A stretch of DNA of 64,000 nucleotides from assembly GCA_017468385.1 (NCBI GenBank), contig JAFUIQ010000009.1, positions 68,614-132,613 of the forward strand, written 5' to 3'. This DNA comes from Clostridia bacterium. GTDB taxonomy: Bacteria; Bacillota; Clostridia; Oscillospirales; CAG-272. Of the stretch, positions 31,612 through 58,140 are shown in pieces. Made by a program: the position numbers and the translations under genes. Positions within the stretch are counted from its first letter, which is position 1; each line of letters starts with the position of its first letter. The notes beneath the pieces were generated by a model. That model was not told where the DNA came from and ran no database searches. It was given only the letters and a program-made list of their open reading frames with translations.

Positions 31612-31736
31612 ATACGTGAAAAATCCTGTAAAATCCGCATTTATGCTTGCATATGTGCGGATTTTGTGGTATACTTACCTTTGTGGGAATGTTTTGCTTC
31701 GTAAAGCAGGATTTCCCCTCAAATGAAGAACAAATT

Positions 31737-31981
31737 GCTGTGATGAAGTCCGCGATTTCGCGTGAGACCGACCCAGAGAGGATGGCCTTGGCTGTGAGCC
31801 GTCTGTCGGTTGCGGAAGAGCATTTCGCTTCGGAGCTTTCGGGATGAAGATGTTTGGTAGTCTCGGACGGGCGTTCCCGTTACAGAACGATTGAGTGTTG
31901 GCTCTTGCCGGAAATCGGGTGGTACCGCGGTGCGAATTTTCGCCTCGTCCCGTTTGTCGGCAGGGCTTATTTTATTTTTTT
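31737..31981 (+). promoter_or_regulatory. T-box leader (tRNA-Phe responsive, specifier UUC) with terminator
   Basis: Promoter TTGCAT-17-TATACT at 31647-31675. Stem I base with GA/K-turn GCUGUGAUGAAG (31737-48) pairs with CUUCGGAGC. AGAGAG box at 31775-80. By analogy with the glyQS architecture (GAA-codon-purine-CUUC), the specifier is UUC at 31824-26. T-box core AAAUCGGGUGGUACCGCG at 31912-29. Hairpin 31942-66 plus a long U-tract reaching 31981. Confidence 0.8.
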
Positions 31982-31992
31982 GGAGAGACGGT

Positions 31993-32736
31993 ATGCGCGT
32001 TTTGATCATTCGTCACGGCGATCCCTACTATCCCACGGATTCCCTGACGGAAAAAGGGCAGAGAGAGGCAAAGCTTCTTTCGGATCGGTTGGTGAAGGAA
32101 AACATCACCCACGCCTATGTTTCCCCCCTTGGACGTGCCAAGCTGACAGCGGCTCCCACCCTGGAGCGGCTCGGCATGGAGGCTACGGAATTGGAATGGC
32201 TGCGGGAATTCCCCGCCTTCCTGGAGGAGGAATTTGCCTATAAGATCCGGATGTTTTCCCAAAAAGTCCGGTGTCCCTGGAATATGCCGCCCCAGATCTG
32301 GGCAGACGTTCCAGGCATCAGTGATGCGGATGGATGGCGGGATGCACCCTTCTATCGGGACGGACGGATCCAGGCCCGGTACGATCTGGTGTGCCGCGGC
32401 TGGGACGATCTTCTCGCCGAGCACGGATACACCCGGGAGGGAAGTGTGTACCGCATTGCCGACGGCTGGGAGGAAAAGCACGAAACCATCGCACTGTTCT
32501 GCCATCTGGGGCTGGGCACGGCACTGCTGTCTCACATTATGCATTTGTCCCTCACCGCCATCTGGCATACGCTGTTTATGCCCACCTCGTCCGTTACCAC
32601 TGTGTTTATGGAGCGGCACCTGGACGATATTCCCTACGCCCACGCCCGGCTGATTTCCGTGGGTGACATATCCCATTTGTACGCCGGTGGAGAACCTATG
32701 TCCACCAGCGGACTGTTGACTGATTCGATTTTGTAA
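31993..32736 (+). CDS. Histidine phosphatase family protein (phosphoglycerate mutase-like)
   Basis: The N-terminal [10 protein letters not shown] is the RHG catalytic motif. GGAGAG SD. The track start at 31891 lies inside the T-box leader and is rejected. Confidence 0.8.
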
Positions 32737-32759: not shown

Positions 32760-33773
32760 ATGAAGGAAACACTTCTGAAAATGAAAGAAGAAGCCCTGGC
32801 GGCGCTGGCCGCGCCGGACGCAGATCTGGAAGCACTCCGCATCCGTTATCTGGGTAAAAAGGGTGAATTGACCGCCGTTCTGCGCGGCATGGGCAAGTTG
32901 AGCGCCGAGGAGCGTCCCGTGATCGGTCAGATCGCCAACGAAGTCCGTGAGGCCATCGAGAACGAACTGACCGCCCGTGCGCAGCAGCAGAAGACTGCCG
33001 CTCTGGCCGCCCGGCTGGCTGCGGAGAAGCTGGACGTAACCGTTCCCGGCACGGTGCCGGAGATCGGCCATATCCATCCTCTGGATCGCGTACAGCGGGA
33101 CATGGAGGAGATCTTCATCGGTATGGGATTCGATATCGTGGAAGGCCCGGAGGTGGAGTATGACTATTACAACTTCCAGGCGCTGAACATTCCGCCGGAT
33201 CACCCCGCCCGGGATACTCAGGATACGTTCTACATCACGGATAATATCCTGCTCCGCTCCCAGACATCCCCCGTGCAGGCCCGTACCATGGAGAAGCGCA
33301 AGCCCCCGATCCGCATCATCTCCCCCGGCCGCGTGTATCGCTCCGACGCCATGGATGCGACTCACTCCCCTTTGTTCCATCAGATGGAAGGCCTGGTTGT
33401 GGATAAGAACGTGACCATGGGTGATCTCAAGGGAACGCTGGAGATGTTCGCCAAGAAGATGTTCGGCGAGGAGACCAAGGTTCGTTTCCGTCCTCACCAC
33501 TTCCCGTTCACCGAGCCGTCCGCGGAGGTAGACGTGTCCTGCTTCGCCTGCGGCGGCAAGGGATGCCGTCTGTGCAAGGGTGAGGGCTGGATCGAGATTC
33601 TCGGCGCCGGCATGGTGCATCCCAACGTACTGCGTATGTGCGGCATCGATCCCGATGAGTACAGCGGATTTGCCTTCGGTATGGGCGTAGAGCGCGTCAC
33701 CATGCTGAAGTACCACATCGACGACATCCGCCATCTGTATGAGAACGATGTGCGGTTCCTGTCCCAGTTCTGA
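32760..33773 (+). CDS. pheS: Phenylalanine--tRNA ligase alpha subunit
   Basis: Canonical PheS class II motifs ([32 protein letters not shown]). Confidence 0.95.
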
Positions 33774-33793: not shown

Positions 33794-36214
33794 ATGAAAC
33801 TTTCTATGAAATGGCTGGCGGATTACACCGACGTCAGCGATATTGATATCAAAGCCTATTGCGACCGCATGACGGATACCGGCTCCAAGGTAGAGGGGTA
33901 CGACGTCCTGGCGGAGGATATTGAGAACGTGGTGGTGGGCAAGATCGTTTCCATCACCAAGCATGAGAATTCCGATCACTTGCAGATCTGCCAGCTGGAT
34001 TGCGGCGAGGGCGAGTTGCGCCAGATCGTAACCGGCGCGCAGAATGTGTTTGAGGGCGCCGTTGTTCCCGTGGCCAAGGCTCCCGCCAAAGTGCCCGGCG
34101 GCGTCACCATCAAGGCGGGCAAACTCCGCGGCGTGGCCTCCGACGGCATGCTTTGCTCCATAGCGGAGCTGGGTCTGACTACCCATGATATGCCCGGTGC
34201 CATCGAGGACGGTATTCTGATCCTGAACGACGTGGGCATGGCCGACGCCGAGATCGGTGCCGATATCCGCGATGTGCTGATGCTGAAGGATACGGTGGTG
34301 GAGTTTGAGATCACCTCCAACCGCCCCGATTGCCTGTCCATGATCGGTCTGGCAAGAGAGTCTGCGGTCAGCTTTGACCGTGCGTGGACACTGCCCACAC
34401 CGAAAAAGCCTTCTGTCAAGAACGACGGCGATTCCATCGATCGCTATCTGAATGTGGAAATCCGTGAGCCGGAATTGTGCTACCGCTACAGCGCCCGCGT
34501 GGTCAAGAACGTGAAGATCGCGCCCTCGCCTTTGTGGCTGCGGATGCGCCTGCGCGCGGCCGGCGTGCGCCCCATCAATAATATCGTAGATATTACCAAC
34601 TACGTTATGCTGGAGTATGGCCAGCCTATGCATGCCTTCGACTACGCCTGCCTGGACGGCAGCCGTATCATCGTTCGCTGTGCGGCAGAGGGCGATGAAT
34701 TCGTATCCCTGGATAATATTCCTCATACTCTGGACAACACCATGCTGGTCATCGCCGACGAGAAGAAGCCGGTGGCATTGGCCGGTGTTATGGGCGGTCT
34801 GAACAGCGAGATCACCGACGGCACAGCGACGGTCGTGTTCGAGAGTGCTATGTTCAAGGGTCCCAGCGTCCGCGTTTCCGGCAAGAAACTGGGTATGCGC
34901 ACCGAATCCTCCTCCCGCTTTGAGAAGGGACTGGATCGGGAAAATACCATGCCCGCACTGGATCGTGCCTGCGAACTGGTGGAACTGCTGGGCGCCGGTG
35001 AAGTGGTAGACGGCACCATCGATCAGTACCCCACCAAGGCGGAGCCCTACTCCCTGCCTCTGGAAACCGAGCGGATCAACCGCTTCCTGGGCGTGGATCT
35101 GAGCGAGGAATATATGGCCGAGATTCTCACCAAGCTGGAGTGCAAAGTGGAAAACGGCATCATCACCGTGCCCACCTTCCGTGACGATCTCCGCTGCCTG
35201 AACGATATCGCTGAGGAAGTGCTCCGCATCTACGGCTACACCAAGATCGAGTCCACCCCCCTGTCCGGCACCACCACCCAGGGCGGCCGCACCCCCCGTC
35301 AGCAGTACGATGTGCTTCTGCGGGATACCCTCTGCGGTATGGGCATGAGCGAAGCGGAGACCTTCTCCTTCATCAGCCCCAAGTATTACGATAAGATCCG
35401 CATGGCCGAGGACGATCCCCGCCGCGTGAGCGTGGTGATCTCCAATCCTCTCGGCGAGGATACCTCCGTGATGCGTACCACGGCCATCCCCTCCATGCTG
35501 GAGATGCTGCACAACAACTTCGCCGTCCGCAACAAGGACGTGAAGCTCTTCGAGATGGCCAGCATCTATATCCCTCATGCCAACGCGGAGGAGCTGCCCG
35601 ATGAAATGAAGCGCCTGGTGATCGGCTTCTACCTCAGCGATGCTAAGGATGCCTCCGGCTTCTACCGTATGAAAGGATATATCGAGGCACTTCTGGCAGT
35701 CGGCCATACCACCGGCGCGGAATATGCTCCCTGCACCACGGAAAACGTGTTCCATCCCGGCCGCTGCGCCACCGTTTCCGTGAACGGTGTGCAGATCGGT
35801 ATTTTCGGTGAGGTGCATCCCGAGGTTGCCGCCAATTACGGCATCGGCGCGCCCACCTATGTGGCACAGCTGGATTTTGATGCTATGTTTGAAGCACGCA
35901 TCGAGGTAGTGGAGTATGCGCCCCTGCCCAAGTATCCTGCCCTGGAGCGTGACTTCTCCTTCGTGTGCGATGAGGAAACTCCTGTGGCACAGCTGGAATC
36001 CTGCATGAAGCGGGCCGGCGGCGCTATGCTGGAGTCTGTGCGGTTGTTCGATATCTACCGCGGTCCCCAGATCGGCGAGGGCAAGAAGAGCGTGTCCTTT
36101 GCGGCTATGCTCCGTGCTGCTGAACGTACCCTTACCGATGAGGAAGCGGACGGCGCCGTCAAGAAGATTCTGAAGCGTCTGGAAGCCGAATGCGGCGCAG
36201 TTCTCAGAAGCTGA
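33794..36214 (+). CDS. pheT: Phenylalanine--tRNA ligase beta subunit
   Basis: 806 aa. N-terminal tRNA-binding domain (MKLSMKWLADY...), then B3/4, B5 and FDX-ACB-like regions. Confidence 0.95.
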   Translation: MKLSMKWLADYTDVSDIDIKAYCDRMTDTGSKVEGYDVLAEDIENVVVGKIVSITKHENSDHLQICQLDCGEGELRQIVTGAQNVFEGAVVPVAKAPAKVPGGVTIKAGKLRGVASDGMLCSIAELGLTTHDMPGAIEDGILILNDVGMADAEIGADIRDVLMLKDTVVEFEITSNRPDCLSMIGLARESAVSFDRAWTLPTPKKPSVKNDGDSIDRYLNVEIREPELCYRYSARVVKNVKIAPSPLWLRMRLRAAGVRPINNIVDITNYVMLEYGQPMHAFDYACLDGSRIIVRCAAEGDEFVSLDNIPHTLDNTMLVIADEKKPVALAGVMGGLNSEITDGTATVVFESAMFKGPSVRVSGKKLGMRTESSSRFEKGLDRENTMPALDRACELVELLGAGEVVDGTIDQYPTKAEPYSLPLETERINRFLGVDLSEEYMAEILTKLECKVENGIITVPTFRDDLRCLNDIAEEVLRIYGYTKIESTPLSGTTTQGGRTPRQQYDVLLRDTLCGMGMSEAETFSFISPKYYDKIRMAEDDPRRVSVVISNPLGEDTSVMRTTAIPSMLEMLHNNFAVRNKDVKLFEMASIYIPHANAEELPDEMKRLVIGFYLSDAKDASGFYRMKGYIEALLAVGHTTGAEYAPCTTENVFHPGRCATVSVNGVQIGIFGEVHPEVAANYGIGAPTYVAQLDFDAMFEARIEVVEYAPLPKYPALERDFSFVCDEETPVAQLESCMKRAGGAMLESVRLFDIYRGPQIGEGKKSVSFAAMLRAAERTLTDEEADGAVKKILKRLEAECGAVLRS

Positions 36215-42351: not shown

Positions 42352-42783
42352 TCACGAAAGGATCTCTTTCAGATGGACAAGGCCCATGCGGTAGCCGTCA
42401 AAGCCGCATCCCGCAATGGTTTTCTTCGCTGCCAGAGAGACAAAGGAGTGACGGCGGAATTCCTCCCGCTCGTTCACATCGGAGATGTGTACCTCCACCG
42501 TGGGGATGGACACCGCCTTCAGCGCATCCAGAATGGCCACGCTGGTGTGGGTATAGGCTGCCGGGTTGATCAGGATGCCGTCAAAGACGCCGTAGGCGGC
42601 TTGAATTGTATCCACAATCGCGCCCTCGTGGTTGGATTGGAACAACTCCACATCCAAACCCATTTCGCCGGCCCAGGCGGTGATCTTCCGGCACAGATCG
42701 GCATAGGTGCCGCTGCCGTAGATGTCCGGTTCCCGGATGCCCAGCATATTCAGATTGGGTCCGTTGATAACAAGAATTTTCAT
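42352..42783 (-). CDS. aroQ: Type II 3-dehydroquinate dehydratase
   Basis: MKILVINGPNLNMLGIREPDIYG is canonical. The ATG overlaps the upstream stop (ATGA). The track start at 42885 is rejected. Confidence 0.93.
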   Translation of the reverse strand: MKILVINGPNLNMLGIREPDIYGSGTYADLCRKITAWAGEMGLDVELFQSNHEGAIVDTIQAAYGVFDGILINPAAYTHTSVAILDALKAVSIPTVEVHISDVNEREEFRRHSFVSLAAKKTIAGCGFDGYRMGLVHLKEILS

Positions 42784-44084
42784 GTGGAACCTCCCGTTGT
42801 TTCTTCGTTTTTCCGGAGTGCTGCCAGAATCCCGGCGGCGGTCTGTGCCGGATTTTCCAGACATGCCGCCCGGACATCCGCCCATGCCTCGTACAGAGGC
42901 AGTCGTTTTTCATACAGCGCCTGCACCCCCTGTGCCTGACTGAGGGGCCGGCCGGCGGAGGACAACTCATCCACCGGGCGGGTGAGAAATACCAGTGTGC
43001 CGTTCTGGGACAAGGGAGCATAGTTTTCCCGACGGGTAACGATGCCGCCGCCGGTGGCAATCACGCAGCCGCTCCTTTTGCCCAGATTCATGGCCGCTTC
43101 GTGCTCGATCCGGCGGAAGGCGTCCTCCCCGTCCTCCCGGATGATCTCCGCCGGGGTGCGCCCGCTGATCTGCACGATTTCCTCGTCCGTGTCCGCGAAA
43201 TCAAAACCGATGGCTTCGGCCAGTGCCCGTCCCGCGGTGGATTTGCCGCAGCCCGGCATGCCGATGAGAACGATGTTCTCCTTGGCCGCCCGCACGGTGC
43301 GGGTCACCTCTTCGATCACTGAATCGGGCAGTGACCGATCGAAGAACAGCTCGCTGGCCCGTTTGGCCTGGGCCACCAGCATGACAAGACCGCTGACCGC
43401 GGGGATGCCGCGGACCAGGGCGTCCTGGATCAGCTTCGTGCGGCAGGGATTGTAGATCATATCCACCACGCCGCTCAGATGATCAAACACCGCCAGATCC
43501 ACGGGCGACACGCCGTTGTTCGGGTACATCCCCACCGGTGTGGTGTTGATGATCACATCCGCATCCGCGTGGCGGGCGATGTTTCCGTAATGGTTCTCCC
43601 CGGAGCGGGAGATGACGACGGGGGTGCCCCCCCGATCCGTCACCACGGCGATGGCTGTCATGGAGGCCCCACCGGAGCCGAGGATCAGGCATTTTTTGCC
43701 CGACACATGGATGCCCGCCGTGTCCAGCATATGGGCAAATCCGTAGTAATCCGTGTTGTCTCCCCGCAGACCGCCGCCGGGCCGATGGGTGATGGTGTTC
43801 ACCGATCCGATCTTTTTGGCCGCGTCGGAGATCTCGGTGAGATAAGGAATCACGGTTTTCTTATAAGGGATGGTTACGTTGATGGCTTCAAACCGATCGG
43901 AGGCGAGAAAGGCGGGGACAGCCGCCTCCTCCATCTCAAACAGGCGATATTCGTAATCGCCCAGCGCGGCATGGATCTCCGGGGAGTAGCTGTGGGACAG
44001 CCGCTCCCCCAGAAGACCGTAGATTTTCTTTTCCACGTCAGCCGATGGATTCCGCGTAGGTGCCGAGGTACTTAAAGTCTTCAC
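42780..44084 (-). CDS. aroE/aroK: Bifunctional shikimate dehydrogenase / shikimate kinase fusion
   Basis: N-terminal AroE (IYGLLGERLSHSYSPEIH, NVTIPYK, NTDYYGF, GSGGA) and C-terminal AroK (IVLIGMPGCGKST P-loop, DTDEEI). The start is uncertain: GTG 44084 overlaps pheA by 47 nt, and an alternative GTG lies at 44036. Confidence 0.88.
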   Translation of the reverse strand: MKTLSTSAPTRNPSADVEKKIYGLLGERLSHSYSPEIHAALGDYEYRLFEMEEAAVPAFLASDRFEAINVTIPYKKTVIPYLTEISDAAKKIGSVNTITHRPGGGLRGDNTDYYGFAHMLDTAGIHVSGKKCLILGSGGASMTAIAVVTDRGGTPVVISRSGENHYGNIARHADADVIINTTPVGMYPNNGVSPVDLAVFDHLSGVVDMIYNPCRTKLIQDALVRGIPAVSGLVMLVAQAKRASELFFDRSLPDSVIEEVTRTVRAAKENIVLIGMPGCGKSTAGRALAEAIGFDFADTDEEIVQISGRTPAEIIREDGEDAFRRIEHEAAMNLGKRSGCVIATGGGIVTRRENYAPLSQNGTLVFLTRPVDELSSAGRPLSQAQGVQALYEKRLPLYEAWADVRAACLENPAQTAAGILAALRKNEETTGGST

Positions 44085-45183
44085 TGCCGGATTCCAACTC
44101 GGAGATCAGCTCCAGAAGCTCCGGCGAGTAGGCGGAGGCTTCAATGTCGAAATAGAACATGAACTCAAATTCCCGCTCAGGCAGAGGACGGGATTCCAGC
44201 TTCAGCAGGTTCAGACCCAGAGCGTTGATTTTGGCCAGAATGTTGTACAGCGCACCGGGCTTGTGGGCCGTAACCAGCATGATGCTGGTGCGGTCCGCAC
44301 CGGGGTAAATCTGGGGATTCTTGGCCACGCAGATGAAGCGGGTGTAGTTGTTGCTCTTATCCTGAACGGAGTCGGCCAGGGATTCCAGCTCATACAACTC
44401 CGCGCAGGCGCGGGCGGACAGTGCCGCCACATCCCGTCTGTCGGATTCTGCCACCATGCGGGCGGCTACGGCGGTGTTGGGGCAAACGGTCACTTTCACA
44501 TCCTTGAAGGTGCGCAGGAAGGCCGCGCACTGATCGATGGCCTGCTCGTGAGAGAAGATCTCCTTGATGTCGCTGATCTTGGTGCCGGGCTTGGCCAGCA
44601 GATGATGATCGATCTTCACCCGCATGGAGCGAACCACGTACAGATTGTGATCCACCATCAGATCGTATACCCGCTTTACGGAGCCGGCGGTGCTGTTCTC
44701 GATGGGCAATACACCGTACTCGCACATGCCGGATTCGATGGCGGCGAACACGCCGTCGAAAGAGGAGAAATACAGGATGGAGGGAATCTTGAACATCTTG
44801 GACGCGGCGATCTGGGAATAGGCGCCCTCCACGCCCTGGCAGGCTACCCGCGCCTGCTCGGGGAACAGCTTGGCGGTGGTTTCCAGCGCGTTTTCGATGA
44901 TGGCACCGTATTTGCTCTCGGGAGAGAGTTTCTTGTGCTGATAGGAGCGGCTCAGGGACAGAATGGTGGAATAGAGCACGATGGCGTACTCGTCCAGGTC
45001 CTCACCGGCTTTCTGGGCCACGCCCGCCAGCAATTCCCGCTCTCTGGCCGCATCCAATACGGGCAGACTGTTCTGACGCTTGTATTCCGCGATATCGCTG
45101 GATACCTGCATACGCCGCAGGAACAGCTCCAGCATGTCGCTGTCAATTTGATTGATTTGTTCTCTCAAAGTGGAAAGATCCAT
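44038..45183 (-). CDS. pheA: Bifunctional chorismate mutase / prephenate dehydratase
   Basis: CM_2 N-terminus (LREQINQIDSDMLELFLRRMQVS), a PDT domain, and an ACT domain with LESRP. Confidence 0.92.
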   Translation of the reverse strand: MDLSTLREQINQIDSDMLELFLRRMQVSSDIAEYKRQNSLPVLDAARERELLAGVAQKAGEDLDEYAIVLYSTILSLSRSYQHKKLSPESKYGAIIENALETTAKLFPEQARVACQGVEGAYSQIAASKMFKIPSILYFSSFDGVFAAIESGMCEYGVLPIENSTAGSVKRVYDLMVDHNLYVVRSMRVKIDHHLLAKPGTKISDIKEIFSHEQAIDQCAAFLRTFKDVKVTVCPNTAVAARMVAESDRRDVAALSARACAELYELESLADSVQDKSNNYTRFICVAKNPQIYPGADRTSIMLVTAHKPGALYNILAKINALGLNLLKLESRPLPEREFEFMFYFDIEASAYSPELLELISELESGSEDFKYLGTYAESIG

Positions 45184-45202
45184 GATATGTTACCTCGATT
45201 AT

Positions 45203-46291
45203 TTATAAAAGTGCCGGATCCAGCAGCGCGTCCAGAACGGCCAGGGCTGCGGCGGCTTCGATGACGGGAACAGCGCGGACGGGGATGCAGGGATCGTGGC
45301 GTCCGCCGATGGTCAGTTTGGTGTTTTCCATCCGGGACAAGCTCACGCTGTCCTGTTCTTTCGCGATGGAGGGGGTGGGCTTCATGGCACAGCGGAAGGT
45401 GAGGGGCATGCCGTTGGTCATACCGCCCTGAATGCCGCCGCTGTGATTGGATGTGGTGAAGATCCTCTCTCCGTCGGTGGCAAAGGGATCGTTGGCGTCG
45501 GAGCCCCGCATTTTGGTGATCTCGAATCCCGCACCGAATTCAATGCCCTTGACTCCGGGCACGCCGAAGATCAAGTGGGAGATGCGGTTTTCCATACCCC
45601 AGAACATGTGCTCACCGAGGCCCGGCTTCAGGCCGGTCACGGCACATTCGATGACGCCGCCGATGGAGTCGCCCTCGGCGCGCATCCGGGCGATCAGGGA
45701 TTGCATCCGCTCCCCGGCCGCGGGATCCATCACGGGGAAGTCGTGGGATAAAACCACCTCAAAATCGGCAGCCGACACGTGAAGGGGATCAAAGGGGATG
45801 TCCTGCACATCGCCCACCGAGGCGATGTGGGCACCGATGCGGATGCCCAACCGGGCAAGAATCTGCAAAGCGATTCCGCCGACGATGCACAAGGGTGCGG
45901 TCAGACGGCCGGAGTAGTGGCCGCCGCCCCGCAGATCCACACAGTGACCGTATTTCATAATGGCGGCATAGTCCGCATGGGAGGGGCGGGGTACGTCCGG
46001 GATGGCGGGGTAATCCCCGGAGCGCATATTGGTGTTGTAGATAACGGCTTCCAGCAGCTCACCGTCGGTGGTGTCATCCACTACGCCGCTGAGGAAATGG
46101 GGCGTGTCCGGTTCCTTGCGCTGGGTTCCGTATTTGGTGGAGCCGGGCGCGCGGCGGGCCAGAAAAGTCTGGAGGGCATCCCGGTCGATCTTTTCCCCTG
46201 CGGGGATACCGCTTGCGCGGACGCCGATCTTTTCATCGAGGGATCCGCCGTAGATTTCCAGGTGCAGATTCCGCAAAAAGGTATTTTCCAT
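45203..46291 (-). CDS. aroC: Chorismate synthase (atypical N-terminal signature)
   Basis: RPSHADY, GGRHDPC and SIGGVIEC motifs. ATG 46291 overlaps the aroA stop (ATGA). The N-terminal motif reads GGSLDE where G-E/D-S-H-G is expected. Confidence 0.88.
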   Translation of the reverse strand: MENTFLRNLHLEIYGGSLDEKIGVRASGIPAGEKIDRDALQTFLARRAPGSTKYGTQRKEPDTPHFLSGVVDDTTDGELLEAVIYNTNMRSGDYPAIPDVPRPSHADYAAIMKYGHCVDLRGGGHYSGRLTAPLCIVGGIALQILARLGIRIGAHIASVGDVQDIPFDPLHVSAADFEVVLSHDFPVMDPAAGERMQSLIARMRAEGDSIGGVIECAVTGLKPGLGEHMFWGMENRISHLIFGVPGVKGIEFGAGFEITKMRGSDANDPFATDGERIFTTSNHSGGIQGGMTNGMPLTFRCAMKPTPSIAKEQDSVSLSRMENTKLTIGGRHDPCIPVRAVPVIEAAAALAVLDALLDPALL

Positions 46292-47583
46292 CAGGTGTCC
46301 TCCTCTTCGGTGAATGTGCCGCCCAAGGCGGCGATGTCGGCTGTGAAGCCAGGATAGGATTTGGCAATGGCCTGGGCATCGGTGACGGAGATATCTCCCT
46401 CCGCGTACAGAGATGCCACAAAGGCGCACATCACCAGACGGTGATCGCGGAACGAGGATACGGTGCCGCCGTACAAGGGGCGGCCGCCCCGGATCACGAT
46501 GCGGGTCTCATCGGACGTGATGTCCGCGCCCAGCGTGCGAAGCACTTCGGTAACGGATGCCACCCGATCGCTTTCCTTAATGCGCAGGCGGGCAATGCCG
46601 GTGATGACGGTTTCACCCTCCGCCCGTGCCGCCACCGCGGCGATCACAGGCACCAGATCGGGAATCTGGGAAGCATCCAGCGAGATGCCGTGCAGGGGGG
46701 CAGGGGATACGGTGACAGCATCGCCGTCCACGGTAACGTCCGCGCCGAACTGGCGGATTACGTCCACGATCCGCCGATCCCCCTGGGGGGAGTGGATGTC
46801 CACGCCCGTCACGGTGACGGGATGCTGTCCCACCGCGCCCGCCGCCAGCCAGATGGCGGCATTGGACCAGTCGCCCTCCACGGAAATTTCACCGGGAGAG
46901 CGGTATACACAGGGAATCAGCGAATAACGCCGTTCATCGGGGGAGACATCCACGTGCATGCCGAAACGGTCCATGACCGATGTGGTGATGCGAATATAAT
47001 CCGCGGATTCAATATTGCCCGTCAAGGACAGCGTGCATCGGGCGTAACTCAAAGGAAAGGCCATCAAAAGACCGCTGATGAATTGGGAAGATACATTGGC
47101 TGCCAATGTATACTCTCCGGCGGTGATGGGACCTCCCACCGGCAGGGGCTCTGTGTGGGGATCCCGGGGCAGACGGGCACCGTGGCGCAGGAGTTCCTCG
47201 TACAATGGGGAGAGGGGTCGCTGTGCCAGACGGCCGCGGCGTACAAAGTGAGCAGTACCCATGGGGCCGTGCGCCAAGTATGCGGCGATGGGCAGAAGAA
47301 ACCGCAGGGTGGAGCCGCTCTCGCCGCAATCCAAGACGGGATCGACAGGCCATGGCGAATCCGCCGGTGTGACATGAAATCCGCTCTCTGTGCGGGTGAT
47401 ATCGGCACCCAAAGCACGCAGACAGCGGGCGGTGGCGTCGATGTCCTCGCTGGTGGCATGGCATCGGAGAAACGTGGGCCGATCCGCAAAGGCGGCGCAG
47501 ATCAGCATCCGGTGCGCTACCGATTTAGAGGGGATGGCACCGATCCTGCCACCCCGGATGGGGGTGTGAAAGGTCAGGGTCAT
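46291..47583 (-). CDS. aroA: 3-phosphoshikimate 1-carboxyvinyltransferase (EPSP synthase)
   Basis: 430 aa with EPSP synthase pattern (PSKSVAHR-like IPSKSVAHRMLI, LRIKESDR). Confidence 0.93.
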   Translation of the reverse strand: MTLTFHTPIRGGRIGAIPSKSVAHRMLICAAFADRPTFLRCHATSEDIDATARCLRALGADITRTESGFHVTPADSPWPVDPVLDCGESGSTLRFLLPIAAYLAHGPMGTAHFVRRGRLAQRPLSPLYEELLRHGARLPRDPHTEPLPVGGPITAGEYTLAANVSSQFISGLLMAFPLSYARCTLSLTGNIESADYIRITTSVMDRFGMHVDVSPDERRYSLIPCVYRSPGEISVEGDWSNAAIWLAAGAVGQHPVTVTGVDIHSPQGDRRIVDVIRQFGADVTVDGDAVTVSPAPLHGISLDASQIPDLVPVIAAVAARAEGETVITGIARLRIKESDRVASVTEVLRTLGADITSDETRIVIRGGRPLYGGTVSSFRDHRLVMCAFVASLYAEGDISVTDAQAIAKSYPGFTADIAALGGTFTEEEDT

Positions 47584-48632
47584 GAGCGGCCTCCCCTGAG
47601 GAAGTCCGGCAATTCCGCAACGGGAATCCGCTGCAGCATGCAGCCGCCGATGCCGGTAGGCAGCACCACATCGATGTGGCCGCCCTCCCGTTTTTTGTCG
47701 TGGGTGGCCGCCTCGTACAGATCGTCCACGGCGTATTCCGTCTCCGTGGGCAAATCGTATTGCGTCAAAAGTTTACTCAGAGCCGGCAGAACCTGGGCGG
47801 GGCAGATGCCCCGGCGGATGGCGTATTCGGTGGCGATCCGCATGCCGATGGCCACGCCGTGGCCATGCATCAGGGAGAAGTTTGAGCGCAGTTCAATAGC
47901 ATGTCCCGCGGTGTGGCCGAAGTTCAGATGCTTCCTGACGCCGTGATCCGTTTCGTCCTCCTCCACGATCCGCGCTTTCTGGGCGATACAGCGGGCGATG
48001 ACCGTGGCCATATCCATGGTGTCGGGATTGCTCAGCATGTCAAACAGCACTGCGTCGCCGATGACGGCGTATTTGATCACTTCCGCGAAGCCGTCGGCGC
48101 GTACCTCCGGCGTCAGCGTCTGCAGTGTATCGGGATCGCACAGCACCAGGGACGGATGATGGAACGCGCCGGCCAGATTCTTGCCGGCCGCCAGATCCAC
48201 CGCGGTCTTACCGCCCACGGAGGAATCCACGCAGGAGAGAACTGTGGTGGGAATGCCCACATACCGGATGCCGCGGAGGTAGACCGCGGCGGCAAATCCT
48301 GCCAGATCGCCTACCACGCCGCCGCCCAGGGCACAGACGATGTCGGTGCGGGTGAAGGCGTTTTCCGCCAGAGCGTTCAGAAGGGCGATCAGGGACGTGG
48401 TGTTCTTGGATGCCTCCCCGTGGGGAATGACGAACTCCGCCGTGTCCAGTCCCGCGCTATGCAGGGAGCGGGACAGCGTGTCCCCGTACAAAGCGCGGAC
48501 CGTGTCGTCGGTGACGATCATCACGCGGCACGCACCCATCGTATCTTTAATGTACTCTCCCGCCCGGGCCAGAATGCCCGATTCGATGTGAATATCGTAG
48601 GGGCGGGATACATGTACCGTAATCGTTTTCAT
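47580..48632 (-). CDS. aroB: 3-dehydroquinate synthase
   Basis: GGGVVGDLAGFAAAVYLRGI, metal-binding His residues (FGHTAGHAIE...HGHGVAIG). Confidence 0.93.
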   Translation of the reverse strand: MKTITVHVSRPYDIHIESGILARAGEYIKDTMGACRVMIVTDDTVRALYGDTLSRSLHSAGLDTAEFVIPHGEASKNTTSLIALLNALAENAFTRTDIVCALGGGVVGDLAGFAAAVYLRGIRYVGIPTTVLSCVDSSVGGKTAVDLAAGKNLAGAFHHPSLVLCDPDTLQTLTPEVRADGFAEVIKYAVIGDAVLFDMLSNPDTMDMATVIARCIAQKARIVEEDETDHGVRKHLNFGHTAGHAIELRSNFSLMHGHGVAIGMRIATEYAIRRGICPAQVLPALSKLLTQYDLPTETEYAVDDLYEAATHDKKREGGHIDVVLPTGIGGCMLQRIPVAELPDFLRGGRS

Positions 48633-48643
48633 GGGAATCTTCC

Positions 48644-49480
48644 TTATTTTCCGTCAATGGATTCTTTGGCCTCGCGGCCGTCTTTCAAAAGGACGCGGGT
48701 GGCTTCCGTGTCCCCGTCCCGGATGGCATCCCGGTATTCGGTGAGGGACGCGATCAGCGTGTTAAGTTCCGACACCAGATGTTCCTTGTTCTCCACGAAC
48801 AACTCGCTCCACATCTGCTCGTTCAGACGGGCGACGCGGGTCAGGTCCTTGTAGGATCCGGCGGAGAATCCCTTGTGGGAGCGGGCGGTGGGGGATTTCA
48901 CATACGCATTGGATACCACGTGAGCCAACTGGGAGGTGAAGGCGATCATCTCGTCGTGCTGATCCGCCGTGGTCACGGTCATGCGGCCGAATCCCGCCGG
49001 GGCCAGGGCCTTTTTCACCCGATCCAAGAGAAAGATATCGTCAAAAGTGGGAGGCACCAGCACCATGGAGGCGCCGTTGAACAGATTCTCTCTGGCGTGC
49101 TTGAAGCCGGAGTATTGCAGGCCCGCCATGGGATGGCCGCCCACGAAGGTGAAGCCGTATTCTTTGGCCAGTGCAAATCCCACCTCGCAGATGGTCCGCT
49201 TGGTGCCGCACAGATCGATCACCAGGGCATCCTTCGAAATCCGGGGCGCGATGTCCTTCAGATAATCGATGGCCGCCTGGGGATAGAGCGCGATCAGCAA
49301 AAGATCGCAGGAGGGGATATCCTCCCGGGTCAATTCCCCGTCGATCGCGCCGCGCAGGCGGGCGTATTCCACGATGGTGTGATCCCGATCCGCCCCCAGT
49401 ACGCAGGCGTCGCTGTTTTGCTTGTATGCTTTTGCCATCGATCCGCCAATCAGACCGAGGCCGATGATTCCGACTTTCAT
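48644..49480 (-). CDS. tyrA: Prephenate dehydrogenase
   Basis: NAD fold MKVGIIGLGLIGGSMA and a PDH domain. Confidence 0.9.
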   Translation of the reverse strand: MKVGIIGLGLIGGSMAKAYKQNSDACVLGADRDHTIVEYARLRGAIDGELTREDIPSCDLLLIALYPQAAIDYLKDIAPRISKDALVIDLCGTKRTICEVGFALAKEYGFTFVGGHPMAGLQYSGFKHARENLFNGASMVLVPPTFDDIFLLDRVKKALAPAGFGRMTVTTADQHDEMIAFTSQLAHVVSNAYVKSPTARSHKGFSAGSYKDLTRVARLNEQMWSELFVENKEHLVSELNTLIASLTEYRDAIRDGDTEATRVLLKDGREAKESIDGK

Positions 49481-50481
49481 GCCCGTGCCACTTCCAGAAT
49501 CCGGGCAACGCCCTGGGCTACCTCACCGAACTGCTCGGGGGTCAGGGACTGGGGACCGTCGCACAGCGCGTGCTTGGGATCGTTGTGTACTTCAATCATA
49601 AGCCCGGCGGCACCGCAGGCGGCGGCCGCATAGGCCATGGGCTTTACATAACGGGCTACGCCGGTGGCGTGGCTGGGATCCACGATCACGGGAAGGTGGG
49701 TCAGCTCCTTCAATACCGATACGGCAGACAGATCCAGCGTGTTGCGGGTGTATGTTTCAAAAGTACGGATGCCGCGCTCGCACAAAATTACGTTCTCGTT
49801 GCCGCCGGCCATGATGTATTCCGCGCTCATCAGCCATTCTTTCATGGTGTTGGCCAGACCCCGCTTCAGAAGGATGGGCTTGCGGGTCTTGCCCAGTTCC
49901 TTCAGAAGCTCAAAGTTTTGCATGTTGCGCGCTCCCACCTGGATCACGTCCACATCCTCAAACAGGGGCAGGTGATTGGCGTTCATGATTTCGGTAACGA
50001 TGGGCAGACCGGTTTCCTTTTTCGCTTCCACAAGAAGATCAATTCCCTCGGCCTTCAGTCCCTGGAAATCGTAGGGAGAGGTGCGGGGCTTGAATGCGCC
50101 GCCGCGAAGCATAGTTGCGCCCAGACGCTTGACTTCCCGTGCGATGCCGATGAGCTGCTCCTCACTTTCCACGGAGCAGGGACCGGCGATGAAGGTAAAA
50201 ATATCGCCGCCTACGGATGTATCGCCCACGTGGACGATCGTATCATCGGGATGGAATTTGCGGTTGGCACTCTTGAAGGGCTCACTGATGCGGGTGACGG
50301 ATTCCACCACTTCCAGACCGGCCAGAAGATCGCCGTCGATTTTGGCGGTATCGCCGATCAGACCGAGAACCGTCTGATATTCACCACGGGAAATGTGTAC
50401 ATCCAGTCCGACAGAGCGGATCCAGTCCACGATGCTCTGAATTTGCGAATCGGTGGCGGTATTTTTCAAAACGGCTATCAT
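49477..50481 (-). CDS. aroF: 3-deoxy-7-phosphoheptulonate (DAHP) synthase, type I-beta, with an N-terminal ferredoxin/ACT-like regulatory domain
   Basis: LRGGAFKPRTSPYDFQG and the catalytic core. A ~70-aa N-terminal extension (MIAVLKNTATDSQIQSIVDWIRSVGLDVHISRG) resembles Thermotoga-type regulated enzymes. GGAGG SD. Confidence 0.9.
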   Translation of the reverse strand: MIAVLKNTATDSQIQSIVDWIRSVGLDVHISRGEYQTVLGLIGDTAKIDGDLLAGLEVVESVTRISEPFKSANRKFHPDDTIVHVGDTSVGGDIFTFIAGPCSVESEEQLIGIAREVKRLGATMLRGGAFKPRTSPYDFQGLKAEGIDLLVEAKKETGLPIVTEIMNANHLPLFEDVDVIQVGARNMQNFELLKELGKTRKPILLKRGLANTMKEWLMSAEYIMAGGNENVILCERGIRTFETYTRNTLDLSAVSVLKELTHLPVIVDPSHATGVARYVKPMAYAAAACGAAGLMIEVHNDPKHALCDGPQSLTPEQFGEVAQGVARILEVARA

Positions 50482-50525
50482 AATTGTTCCTCCGGTAAGG
50501 TATAATAATTTTGTGTAAGGTATGG

Positions 50526-50566
50526 GATAAAAAATGAAGCCTCACAGCGCTTTCACTGTGAGGCTT
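50526..50566 (-). terminator. Intrinsic terminator inside the 5' leader of the aromatic operon (attenuator)
   Basis: On the minus strand: AAGCCUCACAG-ugaaagcg-CUGUGAGGCUU followed by CAUUUUUUA. It sits 45 nt upstream of the aroF ATG and about 170 nt downstream of the promoter. Confidence 0.8.
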
Positions 50567-50630
50567 TCCCAAAAACGGAATCGGTGGGATGACCTTATAT
50601 TCGCAGTAAAAATTACGCAGCAAATTACTC

Positions 50631-50693
50631 TTACTTTCTTACAATGTAATAAAAGTAAAAGTAATAAAATGCGTATGCGAATACGTTTCTCAT
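50631..50693 (-). CDS. Leader peptide of the aromatic operon: MRNVFAYAFYYFYFYYIVRK (20 aa; 4 Phe and 6 Tyr)
   Basis: My translation of the minus strand: atg aga aac gta ttc gca tac gca ttt tat tac ttt tac ttt tat tac att gta aga aag taa. GGAGAG lies 11 nt upstream. It sits between a consensus promoter and a terminator. Confidence 0.7.
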   Translation of the reverse strand: MRNVFAYAFYYFYFYYIVRK

Positions 50694-50738
50694 CTTTACT
50701 ACGACTCTCCGTGTAAATATTTACCCTATGGTGATTCC

Positions 50739-50767
50739 ATTATAGCACTGGGACAGGTGGCTGTCAA
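50739..50767 (-). promoter_or_regulatory. Consensus sigma-A promoter of the aromatic operon
   Basis: On the minus strand: TTGACA (50767-62) - 17 nt - TATAAT (50744-39). Confidence 0.7.
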
Positions 50768-50947
50768 GGCATTAGGCAAAAAAAAGAGAGCGTAAACAAA
50801 AAACATCCACAAGGATTGAATTTTTATACAATCCTGCAAATGGTTGCGTTTACAATAAATTTAAAATTGTTGTGTTGACAATAATTTCATGCCGTGATAT
50901 ACTGTTGAAAATAATGTATAGGATCATCCAACAAATGGAGGCTTGTA

Positions 50948-52633
50948 ATGGCTGAACTGGTTTACAATGTACGGGATATTCTTACGTTCCGGGATCTGAT
51001 CGGCGGTAGTGCCGAATTATACGGCGATTTGTGCGCGTTCACCTTTCGGGAAGGCGACGGCATCCGTGAGGTAACGTATCGGGAGGCCTACGACGATGTC
51101 CGTGCCTTTGCCGCCTATCTCAATTCTTTGGGACTGAGTGGCAAAAAGGTGGGCGTCATGGGCAAAAACGGCTATCCCTGGGCGCTGACCTATCTGGCCG
51201 TCACCTGCGGGGTGGGCGTGATCGTGCCCATCGACCGGGAGTTGAAGCCGGACGAACTCCAGCACGTGGTGGATCATTCCGAATTGTCCGCCATCGTGCA
51301 TCTGCCCGACGCGGCGGAGAAGGTGGAGGCTCTGGCGGGAGATTTTCTGCGTCTGAATACGGCATCTCTTGCGGAATATATTGCCGCGGGAGAAACGCTC
51401 CGTGCCATGGGCGACACGTCCTATGAGAATCATCATGTGGATCCCCACGGGTTGGGCATCCTTTTGTATACATCCGGCACCACCGGATTGGCCAAGGGCG
51501 TCATGCTGTCCCAGTACAACATCTGCTCCAATATCATGAATGTGCTTCGCATGGTGTCCGTGGGGGTAGAAGATCGGGTTTTGTCCATCCTGCCTCTGCA
51601 TCACACCTACGAGTGCATGGCGGGATTCCTTGCCCCCCTCTACGCCGGCGCCAGCATTGCCTATAACGATTCCCTCCGCCGCCTGACGGAGGATTTCAAG
51701 CTGTTTTCTCCCACCGTTCTGATCGCCGTTCCCCTGGTGCTGGAAACCTTGCGCAACAACATCATCAAGCGATACGGCAAGATCAAGGGCGGTAATGCAC
51801 TTTTGGCCGTCCAGCGGCGGGTGTCCGACGCGGCCCGTGCCCTCAATCCCGATGCGGGCCGAAAAATTTTCTCTACGGTGGCAAATGCTTTTGGCGGACG
51901 GCTGACACGGATCCTCTCCGGTGCGGCTCTGCTTCCCGAGCATGTCCATCGGGATATGGAGCGGTTCGGATTCAAGGTGTATATCGGCTACGGACTGACG
52001 GAAACCTCCCCCGTCTGCCTGATGCATAACGATTTCTACCGGGCCCCCGACGATATCGGATTCCCCATCGTAGGCGGCCAGGCGAAATTGGTGGATCCCG
52101 ACGAGAACGGCTTGGGTGAGTTGGCCTACCGGGGCGCCAATGTGATGCTGGGATATTATAAGAATCCCGAGGAAACCGCAAAAGTTCTGCGGGACGGGTG
52201 GTTCCACACAGGCGATCTTGCCCGGGTAAAAGAGAACGGCGCGTACCAGATCACGGGACGCAAAAAGAGCATGATCGTTACCCAGAACGGCAAGAAGATC
52301 TTCCCCGAGGAATTGGAGTTCTATTTGGATCAGAGCGAGTATGTAGCGGAGTGCATGGTATACGGCGAGGAGGGCGAGCATGACGTGATTGTCACCGCCG
52401 CCGTGTTCCCCAACTATCCCGTCATTGAGGAGCGTCTGGCCGGGGAGGGAATTCATCCCGGAGACGATCATTTTGACAGCCGTGTGCGGGAGATCATCAC
52501 CAAAGCCGTGAAAGAGGTGAACGAAAAGCTCCCCTCCTTCCGCCGCATCATGAAGATCTGCATCCGCAAAACGGAGTTTGTGAAAACTACCACCCGCAAG
52601 ATCAAGCGCACCGACGAAAACCGGGGCGAGTGA
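50948..52633 (+). CDS. AMP-dependent synthetase/ligase (long-chain acyl-CoA synthetase-like)
   Basis: AMP-binding motifs LLYTSGTTGLAKGVML, YGLTETS and TGDLARV. Own TTGACA-17-TATACT promoter. Confidence 0.88.
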   Translation: MAELVYNVRDILTFRDLIGGSAELYGDLCAFTFREGDGIREVTYREAYDDVRAFAAYLNSLGLSGKKVGVMGKNGYPWALTYLAVTCGVGVIVPIDRELKPDELQHVVDHSELSAIVHLPDAAEKVEALAGDFLRLNTASLAEYIAAGETLRAMGDTSYENHHVDPHGLGILLYTSGTTGLAKGVMLSQYNICSNIMNVLRMVSVGVEDRVLSILPLHHTYECMAGFLAPLYAGASIAYNDSLRRLTEDFKLFSPTVLIAVPLVLETLRNNIIKRYGKIKGGNALLAVQRRVSDAARALNPDAGRKIFSTVANAFGGRLTRILSGAALLPEHVHRDMERFGFKVYIGYGLTETSPVCLMHNDFYRAPDDIGFPIVGGQAKLVDPDENGLGELAYRGANVMLGYYKNPEETAKVLRDGWFHTGDLARVKENGAYQITGRKKSMIVTQNGKKIFPEELEFYLDQSEYVAECMVYGEEGEHDVIVTAAVFPNYPVIEERLAGEGIHPGDDHFDSRVREIITKAVKEVNEKLPSFRRIMKICIRKTEFVKTTTRKIKRTDENRGE

Positions 52634-58057: not shown

Positions 58058-58140
58058 GCTCCTGTGGTGGAATTGGCAGACACGCTGGATTTAGGATCCA
58101 GTGCGCAAGCGTGCAGGTTCGACCCCTGTCAGGAGCACCA
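58058..58140 (+). tRNA. tRNA-Leu (anticodon UAG), with encoded CCA
   Basis: Acceptor stem gctcctg/caggagc. D-arm gtggaattggcagacac. Anticodon stem ctgga/tccag with loop tt-TAG-ga. Long variable arm. T-arm gcaggttcgacccctgt. Discriminator A plus CCA. Confidence 0.9.

Follow-up and report, generated by a model that had tools for sequence, protein, structure and literature searches.

Upstream of aroF in Corynebacterium glutamicum lies aroR, a leader coding for phenylalanine (Phe), tyrosine (Tyr), and Phe in turn (first noted in PMC4046766; see also PMC11802643), and PMC11802643, citing Neshat et al. 2014, describes its transcription as raised by Phe limitation and not by Tyr limitation. Another candidate situated upstream of aroF, uORFC-13-1, is represented by 24 examples from Acholeplasma and from unassigned environmental sequences, and attenuation by the speed of Phe incorporation has been proposed for it (Brewer et al. 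2021, PMC8632094). Leader peptides are rare in Firmicutes, where they have already been reported for histidine (His), in the Bacillus cereus group, Clostridioides difficile, and Erysipelotrichales (PMC2965389, PMC9413887), and for leucine (Leu), in the Leu-rich ilv-leu attenuator of Staphylococcus aureus (PMC5794164). Here, we describe a leader rich in Phe and Tyr codons on the minus strand of a 64-kb window (the whole stretch of DNA analyzed, from contig JAFUIQ010000009.1 of Clostridia bacterium assembly GCA_017468385.1), first read over positions 50900-50400 and lying ahead of an eight-gene Phe/Tyr operon that begins with the DAHP synthase gene aroF. Judging from its sequence, from comparison with relatives, and from folding models, the element is very probably a leader-peptide attenuator of transcription, operated by the translating ribosome and responsive to how much tRNA-Phe and tRNA-Tyr is charged.

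Like aroR, the element is a predicted leader-peptide attenuator placed before a DAHP synthase gene, its codons mix Phe with Tyr, and stalling would relieve termination. The two differ, when compared by description, in that aroR belongs to Actinobacteria, contains three aromatic codons (versus 6 to 10 here), and occupies a single locus rather than a multi-operon set. With uORFC-13-1 the element shares the layout of a candidate upstream open reading frame (uORF) provided with a promoter, ribosome-binding site, start codon, and Phe codons and followed by an intrinsic terminator and aroF, all in a Firmicutes-related lineage. The uORFC-13-1 motif, however, is a U run encoding at least one Phe, as opposed to the alternating Tyr/Phe run found here, a separation made by description only; a search of Rfam 15 with the window leader did not detect uORFC-13-1 at E <= 10. 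Full-text literature searches turned up no account of a Phe/Tyr leader from Clostridia, a coverage outside which many subscription-journal papers fall. The initial annotation of this locus, made from the DNA letters without database searches (hereafter the sequence-only reading), had presumed that no such mixed leader was described for Clostridia, a claim of novelty that is narrowed by the Firmicute leader peptides and the Corynebacterium Phe-Tyr-Phe aroF leader that were already known and by the Phe uORF proposed in Acholeplasma.

The proposed logic is that of the Escherichia coli leaders pheL-pheA (Rfam Phe_leader), trpL, and hisL, in which tandem regulatory codons accompany three alternative helices formed between successive regions of the transcript (1:2, 2:3, and 3:4), a ribosome terminating at the stop codon blocks region 2, and an antiterminator weaker than the terminator leaves a kinetic decision. 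The present element departs from these leaders in showing no sequence or covariance-model similarity to them at E <= 10, in mixing Phe and Tyr codons, in its host (a high-GC Clostridium of the Oscillospiraceae group), and in the regulated unit, a full operon for the common pathway together with the Phe and Tyr branches. It resembles the His and Leu leaders of Firmicutes as a case of "regular" leader peptides replacing T-boxes, but it concerns other amino acids and other taxa and has no sequence relationship to them. T-boxes (RF00230), the usual Firmicute solution, likewise respond to tRNA charging by acting on an intrinsic terminator ahead of amino acid genes, within the 5' leader; they bind uncharged tRNA directly, however, and need no translation.

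The promoter, Shine-Dalgarno sequence, and 20-codon ORF that the sequence-only reading picked out are all in place (Table 1), and transcription of the aro operon probably starts at ~50732, as judged from the promoter sequence. The leader peptide is encoded by ATG AGA AAC GTA TTC GCA TAC GCA TTT TAT TAC TTT TAC TTT TAT TAC ATT GTA AGA AAG TAA; 4 Phe and 6 Tyr codons make up 10 of the 20, and eight aromatic codons follow one another without interruption. Across both strands of the window, it is the only small ORF with at least six aromatic codons in eight. The leader has a GC content of 37%, compared with ~60% for coding DNA, and the transcript segment 50735-50482 folds at -81.3 kcal/mol, against -45.6 +/- 4.8 kcal/mol for dinucleotide shuffles (z = -7.5; none of 200 shuffles equaled it).

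The minimum free energy (MFE) fold of the same segment reproduces the hairpin of aromatic codons noticed earlier by eye, with AUUACUUUUACUUUU.UUAC opposite GUAAGAAAGUAAGAGUAAU across the loop AUU and with the leader stop codon UAA inside its 3' strand, region 2. It adds two outer helices that had gone unmentioned, UACGCA/UGCGUA and GUAUUCGCA/UGCGAAUAU, which extend the hairpin over codons 4 to 20; the complete 1:2 hairpin reaches -30.0 kcal/mol. A GC-rich terminator hairpin with a U6 tract follows as the sequence-only reading had it, except that the stem measures 13 bp and not 11, and it ends ~45 nt before aroF. The alternative hairpin that this reading had drawn between AGUAAGAGUAAU and GUAAUUUUUACU (50635-50605) was considered as the antiterminator and rejected, as it is weak (-3.6 kcal/mol), unconserved, and different from the conserved antiterminator described below. 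The MFE fold also pairs the 5' untranslated region and Shine-Dalgarno sequence with 50592-50575, a pairing that we set aside because an initiating ribosome would break it whatever the amino acid supply.

Table 1. Coordinates of the proposed attenuator, the operon it precedes, and the pheST genes in the window
Feature	Coordinates	Strand	Basis or remark
Sigma-70-type promoter, TTGACA-17-TATAAT	50739..50767	-	12/12 consensus matches; TG precedes -10
-35 hexamer, TTGACA	50767-50762	-	
TG-extended -10 hexamer, TATAAT	50744-50739	-	
Leader Shine-Dalgarno sequence, GGAGAG	50705..50710	-	11 nt separate GGAGAG from the ATG at 50693
Leader ORF, MRNVFAYAFYYFYFYYIVRK, 20 codons + UAA	50631..50693	-	Sequence
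Regulatory run UUU UAU UAC UUU UAC UUU UAU UAC (F Y Y F Y F Y Y)	50646..50669	-	Proposed ribosome stalling site
Region 1, 5' strand of 1:2 hairpin, codons 4-16, GUAUUCGCAUACGCA-UUUU-AUUACUUUUACUUUUAUUAC	50646..50682	-	MFE fold; family covariation
Region 2, 3' strand of 1:2 hairpin, GUAAGAAAGUAAGAGUAAU-UUGC-UGCGUA-AUUUUUAC-UGCGAAUAU	50597..50642	-	MFE fold; family covariation
Candidate antiterminator strand, pairs with 50562-50541	50600..50624	-	RNAduplex, -17.4 kcal/mol
Intrinsic terminator (regions 3 and 4), 13-bp GC-rich stem AAGCCUCACAGUG/CGCUGUGAGGCUU, loop AAAG	Stem-loop 50566-50537	-	-21.8 kcal/mol
Terminator tail, CA then U6 (T6)	U6 50534-50529; whole terminator 50529..50566	-	
aroF Shine-Dalgarno sequence GGAGG (50493-50489) and ATG (50481-50479)	50479..50493	-	
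Regulated operon aroF, tyrA, aroB, aroA, aroC, pheA (chorismate mutase-prephenate dehydratase, CM-PDT), aroE-aroK, aroQ	42352..50481	-	Pfam
His_Phos_1 (histidine-phosphatase-family) ORF between T-box and pheS	31891-32736	+	
pheS	32760-33773	+	
pheT	33794-36214	+	

Conservation was assessed in the best 80 loci from an AroF protein scan, taking one genome per species, with AroF identities to the window of 65 to 95%. Nearly all derive from metagenome-assembled genomes of Clostridia or Eubacteriales, and they include three cultured Oscillospiraceae (Sporobacter termitidis DSM 10068, Pseudoflavonifractor sp. AF19-9AC, and Hominicoprocola fusiformis CLA-AA-H269). The leader element is present in 68/80 of these loci, all from Clostridia and with the three cultured organisms among them, and the small ORF, its Phe/Tyr run, the placement of the stop codon, and the terminator are thus conserved in orthologous leaders, as the proposal of an attenuator had anticipated. 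In 65/80 loci, the 300 nt preceding aroF contain a Phe/Tyr-dense small ORF in the orientation of aroF (23.8 kb searched), whereas the other 973 kb of the same loci, both strands counted, contain only five, which amounts to an ~530-fold enrichment upstream of aroF. Under a strict rule that asked for a leader together with an intrinsic terminator ahead of aroF, 63/81 regions (the 80 loci plus the window) qualify, with a median leader of 21 aa and a median terminator of -19.6 kcal/mol; MKHTSFATAYYFYFYFNRKK, MNKLFATAYYYYFFSREKR, and MRNVLFTASYYFYFYFYWDEVRAIDAAKSAI are examples from relatives.

A covariance model (R1, from alignment A2) was built on 58 relatives with the window and its close relative L069 excluded, and it adds six carriers to those found by the strict rule. 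In the window, R1 matches 50528..50690 (-) at 92 bits (E = 2.3e-16) over model positions 1-149/149, and this is its sole significant match, the next best having an E value of 0.76; from this full-length match, it follows that the window is a member of the Phe/Tyr leader family. Two loci, L008 and L010, carry upstream of aroF a longer leader (..EYFFYFFNFFFQGFYFFS.., 40 to 47 aa) that meets the aromatic-ORF rule; R1 misses both at E <= 0.01, and they may be a diverged subfamily with different structures. In L026 and L072, a coding sequence resembling the end of a prephenate dehydratase gene stands directly before aroF, so that aroF follows another gene there; a leader, if present, would be situated farther upstream, which accounts for some of the seemingly leaderless loci.

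To examine the alternative helices across the family, we aligned 62 leaders with plain MAFFT, which is blind to structure (alignment A1), and compared the observed pairing with 500 shuffles and with controls in which the pairing was slid along the alignment. Four conserved blocks emerge: region 1, UUUGCAGCnGAA-UAYUUUUACUUUUAC, coding for F-A-A-E-Y-F-Y-F; region 2, GUAAAAGUGAUUUGUGCUGCAA; and regions 3 and 4, the terminator ..YUGCAGUGAAAUCACUGCAR.., followed by the U run. Helix 1:2 has 75.8% of its cells paired (slid controls, 43 to 51%) and a covariation of 0.251 (best slid control, 0.143); the corresponding values are 72.0% (34 to 59%) and 0.241 (0.151) for helix 2:3 and 81.3% (38 to 56%) and 0.506 (0.161) for helix 3:4. 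None of the 500 shuffles reached the values observed for any of the three helices. The coding strand of helix 1:2 is nearly invariant save for U/A at the second codon position, which exchanges Phe and Tyr, and these exchanges are compensated in region 2 (pair 54-92 is UA in 21 leaders, UG in 17, and AU in 9); the remaining variation falls mostly in the noncoding strand, by way of G-U pairs. This is the pattern expected of a strand that both codes for aromatic residues and pairs.

The same alignment settles, at the level of the family, the antiterminator that the sequence-only reading had left open. Region 2, GUGAUUUGUGCUGCA, pairs with UGCAGUGAAAUCAC, a stretch that runs from the distal part of the terminator 5' arm through the loop into the beginning of the 3' arm. 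Terminator stems are normally not conserved in sequence; here, complementarity to region 2 (GUGAUUU...GCUGCA) is the reason why the top of the stem and its loop (UGCAG...AAAUCAC) are conserved.

We modeled the switch on nascent transcripts that extend to the terminator loop plus 7 nt, letting only the RNA 3' of the ribosome fold, and took as the measure the probability that the distal 5' arm and loop (region 3) pair with upstream sequence. With no ribosome, the median probability is 0.02 and exceeds 0.5 in 6/63 loci; with a ribosome on the aromatic codons, it rises to 0.67, exceeding 0.5 in 47/63; and with a ribosome at the stop codon, it returns to 0.02, exceeding 0.5 in 4/63 (paired tests, p ~1e-11). 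Other versions of the test had been tried and put aside. Equilibrium folding with ribosome masks was rejected, as it yields the terminator in all states. Cutting the nascent transcript at the end of the terminator 5' arm moved the probability only from 0.42 to 0.53 (p = 0.05 versus a shuffled-arm control), an effect that was small because the cut removed the terminator loop, itself part of the antiterminator. A mask of the 29-nt footprint gave an intermediate result and allowed helices that enclose the ribosome, which is sterically implausible, and was replaced by the 3'-only folding; the shuffled region-3 control in that footprint test was uninformative, since shuffling also destroys the top of the competing terminator. 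At the family level, the 1:2, 2:3, and 3:4 helices are predicted to be mutually exclusive, and the modeled 2:3 helix is favored only with a ribosome on the regulatory codons.

Under the proposed mechanism, RNA polymerase would transcribe from the promoter in Table 1 and a ribosome would translate the 20-codon leader. With Phe and Tyr in ample supply, this ribosome would pass the eight aromatic codons and reach the UAA inside region 2; region 2 would then be covered by the ribosome or paired again with region 1 (-30 kcal/mol), the terminator at 50566-50537 and its U6 tract would form, and RNA polymerase would halt ~45 nt before aroF. When either Phe or Tyr is short, the ribosome would stall on the run and occupy region 1, the freed region 2 would capture by base pairing the distal 5' arm of the emerging terminator along with its loop, and the blocked terminator would let the eight-gene operon for the common pathway, Phe, and Tyr be transcribed. 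Translation of the leader, termination at the U tract, read-through on starvation, and the weight that Phe and Tyr each carry in vivo are what we infer.

Several observations weigh against this mechanism. The three-state model is weak for the window and the nearly identical L069 and L200, giving 0.04 for the free transcript, 0.28 with a stalled ribosome, and 0.49 with the ribosome at the stop codon. In these three sequences, an extra segment, GUAAUUUUUACUGCGAAUAU, lengthens the 1:2 hairpin to -30 kcal/mol, and the best duplex between regions 2 and 3 of the window uses this segment. The candidate partner strand, 50562-50541, again comprises the distal 5' arm of the terminator, the loop, and the start of the 3' arm, and the duplex that it could form with 50624-50600 reaches -17.4 kcal/mol, compared with -21.8 for the terminator. 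Only 8 of the 14 consensus 2:3 pairs are found in the window in the register of the alignment, where the pairing is AGUAAUUU/GCUGCG, and ~11/14 after shifting by hand; a ribosome at the UAA would leave the strand 50624-50600 incompletely covered. The predicted antiterminator of the window lineage is weaker than that of most relatives, and it is the weakest part of the case. Elsewhere in the family, 16/63 members stay below 0.5 when the ribosome is stalled, and the full-length leader at equilibrium always forms the terminator (P ~0.96 under every ribosome mask), for which reason the switch model rests on kinetics, that is, on the order of synthesis. The decision at the E. coli trp attenuator is likewise kinetic. 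Finally, the response of C. glutamicum aroR to Phe limitation and not to Tyr limitation (PMC11802643) means that dual sensing here is not guaranteed.

No Rfam family accounts for the leader. At gathering thresholds, Rfam 15 finds only a tRNA gene in the whole window, at 58058-58137 (+) (54.9 bits), and at E <= 10 the interval 50300-51000 returns four chance-level matches only (dfrA-dnaX, a trypanosomatid snoRNA, sR084, and RefA1). T-box RF00230 has no match in that interval at E <= 10, and the aro leader has neither T-box sequence nor a stem I; likewise, Phe_leader, Trp_leader, His_leader, the leu/phe leader, and the other Rfam 15 families do not match the aro leader at E <= 10. In 20 related aroF loci, there was no T-box and no other Rfam match at gathering level. 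The aro leader is neither a T-box, a riboswitch, nor a curated Rfam leader family, and the view that no ligand- or tRNA-binding RNA of a known kind is involved stands even at this permissive threshold.

A T-box does occur elsewhere in the window, at 31731-31955 (+), where RF00230 scores 91.9 bits; the default Rfam scan missed it because this falls below the gathering score of 93. Its specifier loop appears to present UUC (Phe). The earlier assignment of a Phe T-box to pheST was essentially right, with the qualification that an ORF of the His_Phos_1 family intervenes (Table 1). The same genome would therefore use a T-box for pheST and a leader peptide for Phe and Tyr synthesis.

To see which other operons carry the element, metagenomes were surveyed with a narrow DNA pattern spanning regions 1 and 2 that matches 13/80 aroF loci (a first pattern matched only 6/80), so that the sample is biased and some context classes are small. 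The survey returned 120 contigs with 55 distinct leaders, 39/120 being one identical sequence. Only 36/120 have aroF directly downstream; the other contexts are an operon for a PF04392-type ABC transporter, pheA-aroB, aroE-aroK, tyrA alone, and paaK-ior. Representatives of these contexts match the aroF-derived R1 over its full length, terminator included, at 45 to 105 bits. The ABC operon encodes a PF04392 substrate-binding lipoprotein, a BPD_transp_2 permease, and an ABC ATPase and occurs in several distinct species (L084/L092, with ~39 identical contigs, and L085, L087, L122, L149, L152, L177, and L180), which makes the leader-preceded PF04392 system a candidate Phe/Tyr importer. On L181, a leader at 3311-3448 (-) (105 bits) precedes a PaaK-type phenylacetate-coenzyme A (CoA) ligase and an IorA-like 2-oxoacid:ferredoxin oxidoreductase, a context that would fit the synthesis of Phe from phenylacetate, switched on by Phe/Tyr hunger.

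Codon content hints at tuning to each operon, with Phe and Tyr codons mixed ahead of the common-pathway genes. The two leaders found before tyrA alone, L153:83-210 (MTNLFATNSYYYYYYFNN) and L198:1664-1788 (MTKSFVAISYYYYYYFEN), both contain six consecutive Tyr codons and only two Phe codons (...SYYYYYYF..), two being the only such cases, and one tryptophan (Trp) codon is present in the leaders before aroE-aroK and in two of the three before pheA-aroB. Because every context concerns the supply of aromatic amino acids, which would otherwise be hard to explain, the element appears to sense that supply. We consider it somewhat more probable than not, with less assurance than for attenuation as such, that the leader controls in cis an entire aromatic amino acid regulon of gut Clostridia of the Oscillospiraceae type, in the place that T-boxes hold in other Firmicutes and with codons tuned to each operon.

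The alternative that survives best, though we rate it as quite improbable, is an attenuator that binds a protein or ligand in the manner of TRAP or a riboswitch, for which the UUUUAC/UAUUAC hexamers would be the site and the ORF incidental and untranslated. In its favor, the hexamers repeat almost perfectly along the run, the leader folds into a strong structure, and RNA-binding regulators are common for aromatic pathways in Firmicutes (the textbook case is TRAP in Bacillus). The leaders, however, keep exactly one reading frame: the run UUUUACUUUUAC reads FTFT and LLLL in its two other frames, and an in-frame ATG with a Shine-Dalgarno sequence accompanies the Phe/Tyr frame in 59/62 leaders and each of the other frames in 0/62. 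The start codon is ATG in 61/62, the distance from start to run is 8 to 9 codons in 43/62, and the in-frame stop is conserved in or just past region 2, lying across the 62 leaders 10 to 25 nt before or 5 to 40 nt after the GCUGC core of that region. Substitutions in the run keep Phe or Tyr, and the leaders of the family are composed of 19% Phe, 16% Tyr, and 0.2% Trp (TTT 261, TAC 151, TAT 111, TTC 47, and TGG 4), with 6 to 10 aromatic codons each. The codons also track the regulated gene, as in the six consecutive Tyr codons before tyrA, and no Rfam family matches.

Slightly less probable again is a TnaC-like arrest peptide that would sense free aromatic amino acids or another small molecule in the ribosome tunnel, and not charged tRNA. 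The peptide is unusually aromatic, and its N terminus (M-K/R-N-x-F-A-A) shows moderate conservation as a peptide, but RNA pairing with GCUGCAA in region 2 accounts for the conserved F-A-A codons, and the length of the run and the order of Phe and Tyr vary freely among species. Stalling at high amino acid levels would, moreover, have the wrong sign, inducing biosynthesis at a time of ample product.

We give still less weight to a translation-coupled attenuator reporting a general slow-down or another amino acid. Its best case is Leu, as the +2 frame of the window run (50669-50646, UUA CUU UUA...) encodes LLLLLLLH and remains Leu under exchanges of Phe and Tyr; no start codon was found in this frame among the 62 leaders, in all of which it lacks an ATG with a Shine-Dalgarno sequence, and every regulated operon concerns aromatic amino acids. 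The poly-Leu frame appears to be a by-product of the repeat. A chance ORF beside a constitutive or leaky terminator without a regulatory role, of the sort that AT-rich intergenic DNA, rich in TTT and TAT, might produce in a 60% GC genome, is effectively refuted by its being the sole such ORF in 128 kb of window (both strands counted), the ~530-fold enrichment upstream of aroF in relatives, the covariance-model match at E = 2.3e-16, and the covariation of all three helices. Ribosome stalling at a mixed Phe/Tyr leader, as put forward in the sequence-only reading, is thus the explanation supported by conservation, frame, covariation, and the lack of an Rfam family.

The composition of the operon agrees with the earlier description of it as the common pathway with the Phe and Tyr branches. 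Pfam assigns its eight genes to DAHP synthase with a ferredoxin-like N-terminal domain, prephenate dehydrogenase, DHQ synthase, EPSP synthase, chorismate synthase, chorismate mutase-prephenate dehydratase, shikimate dehydrogenase-kinase, and type II dehydroquinase, and it identifies no trp genes within the operon, so that the amino acids made match the Phe and Tyr codons of the leader. The genes overlap or stand closely packed, and a weak terminator-like site lies beyond the operon at 42330-42314. Just 5' of the aro promoter, at 50834-50790 (-), a T run follows an AT-rich inverted repeat (AGGATTG..CAATCCT); this strand has no gene that would be terminated there. A second promoter, divergent from the aro promoter and 108 nt away from it, is close to consensus (TTGACA-17-TATACT with TG, at 50875-50903 (+)) and points toward an AMP-binding (acyl-CoA ligase-like) gene at 50948-52633 (+).

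The element brings no new mechanism, its logic being that of textbook attenuation. It represents a cis-regulatory RNA family that is absent from Rfam 15 and widespread in related Clostridia, and it indicates that leader peptides are not confined to Proteobacteria and Actinobacteria. The presence of a T-box and a leader peptide in one Clostridia genome offers a useful case for studying the choice between sensors of tRNA charge. The host bacteria are dominant in the gut communities of humans and ruminants and difficult to approach by genetics, and the element could serve there as an annotation tool that marks genes responding to Phe/Tyr hunger. If the view of a whole aromatic regulon is true, the element assigns testable functions, with the PF04392 ABC transporter as a Phe/Tyr importer and the paaK-ior operon as a route to Phe from phenylacetate by reductive carboxylation, and it should improve the prediction of aromatic amino acid auxotrophy and cross-feeding in gut communities.

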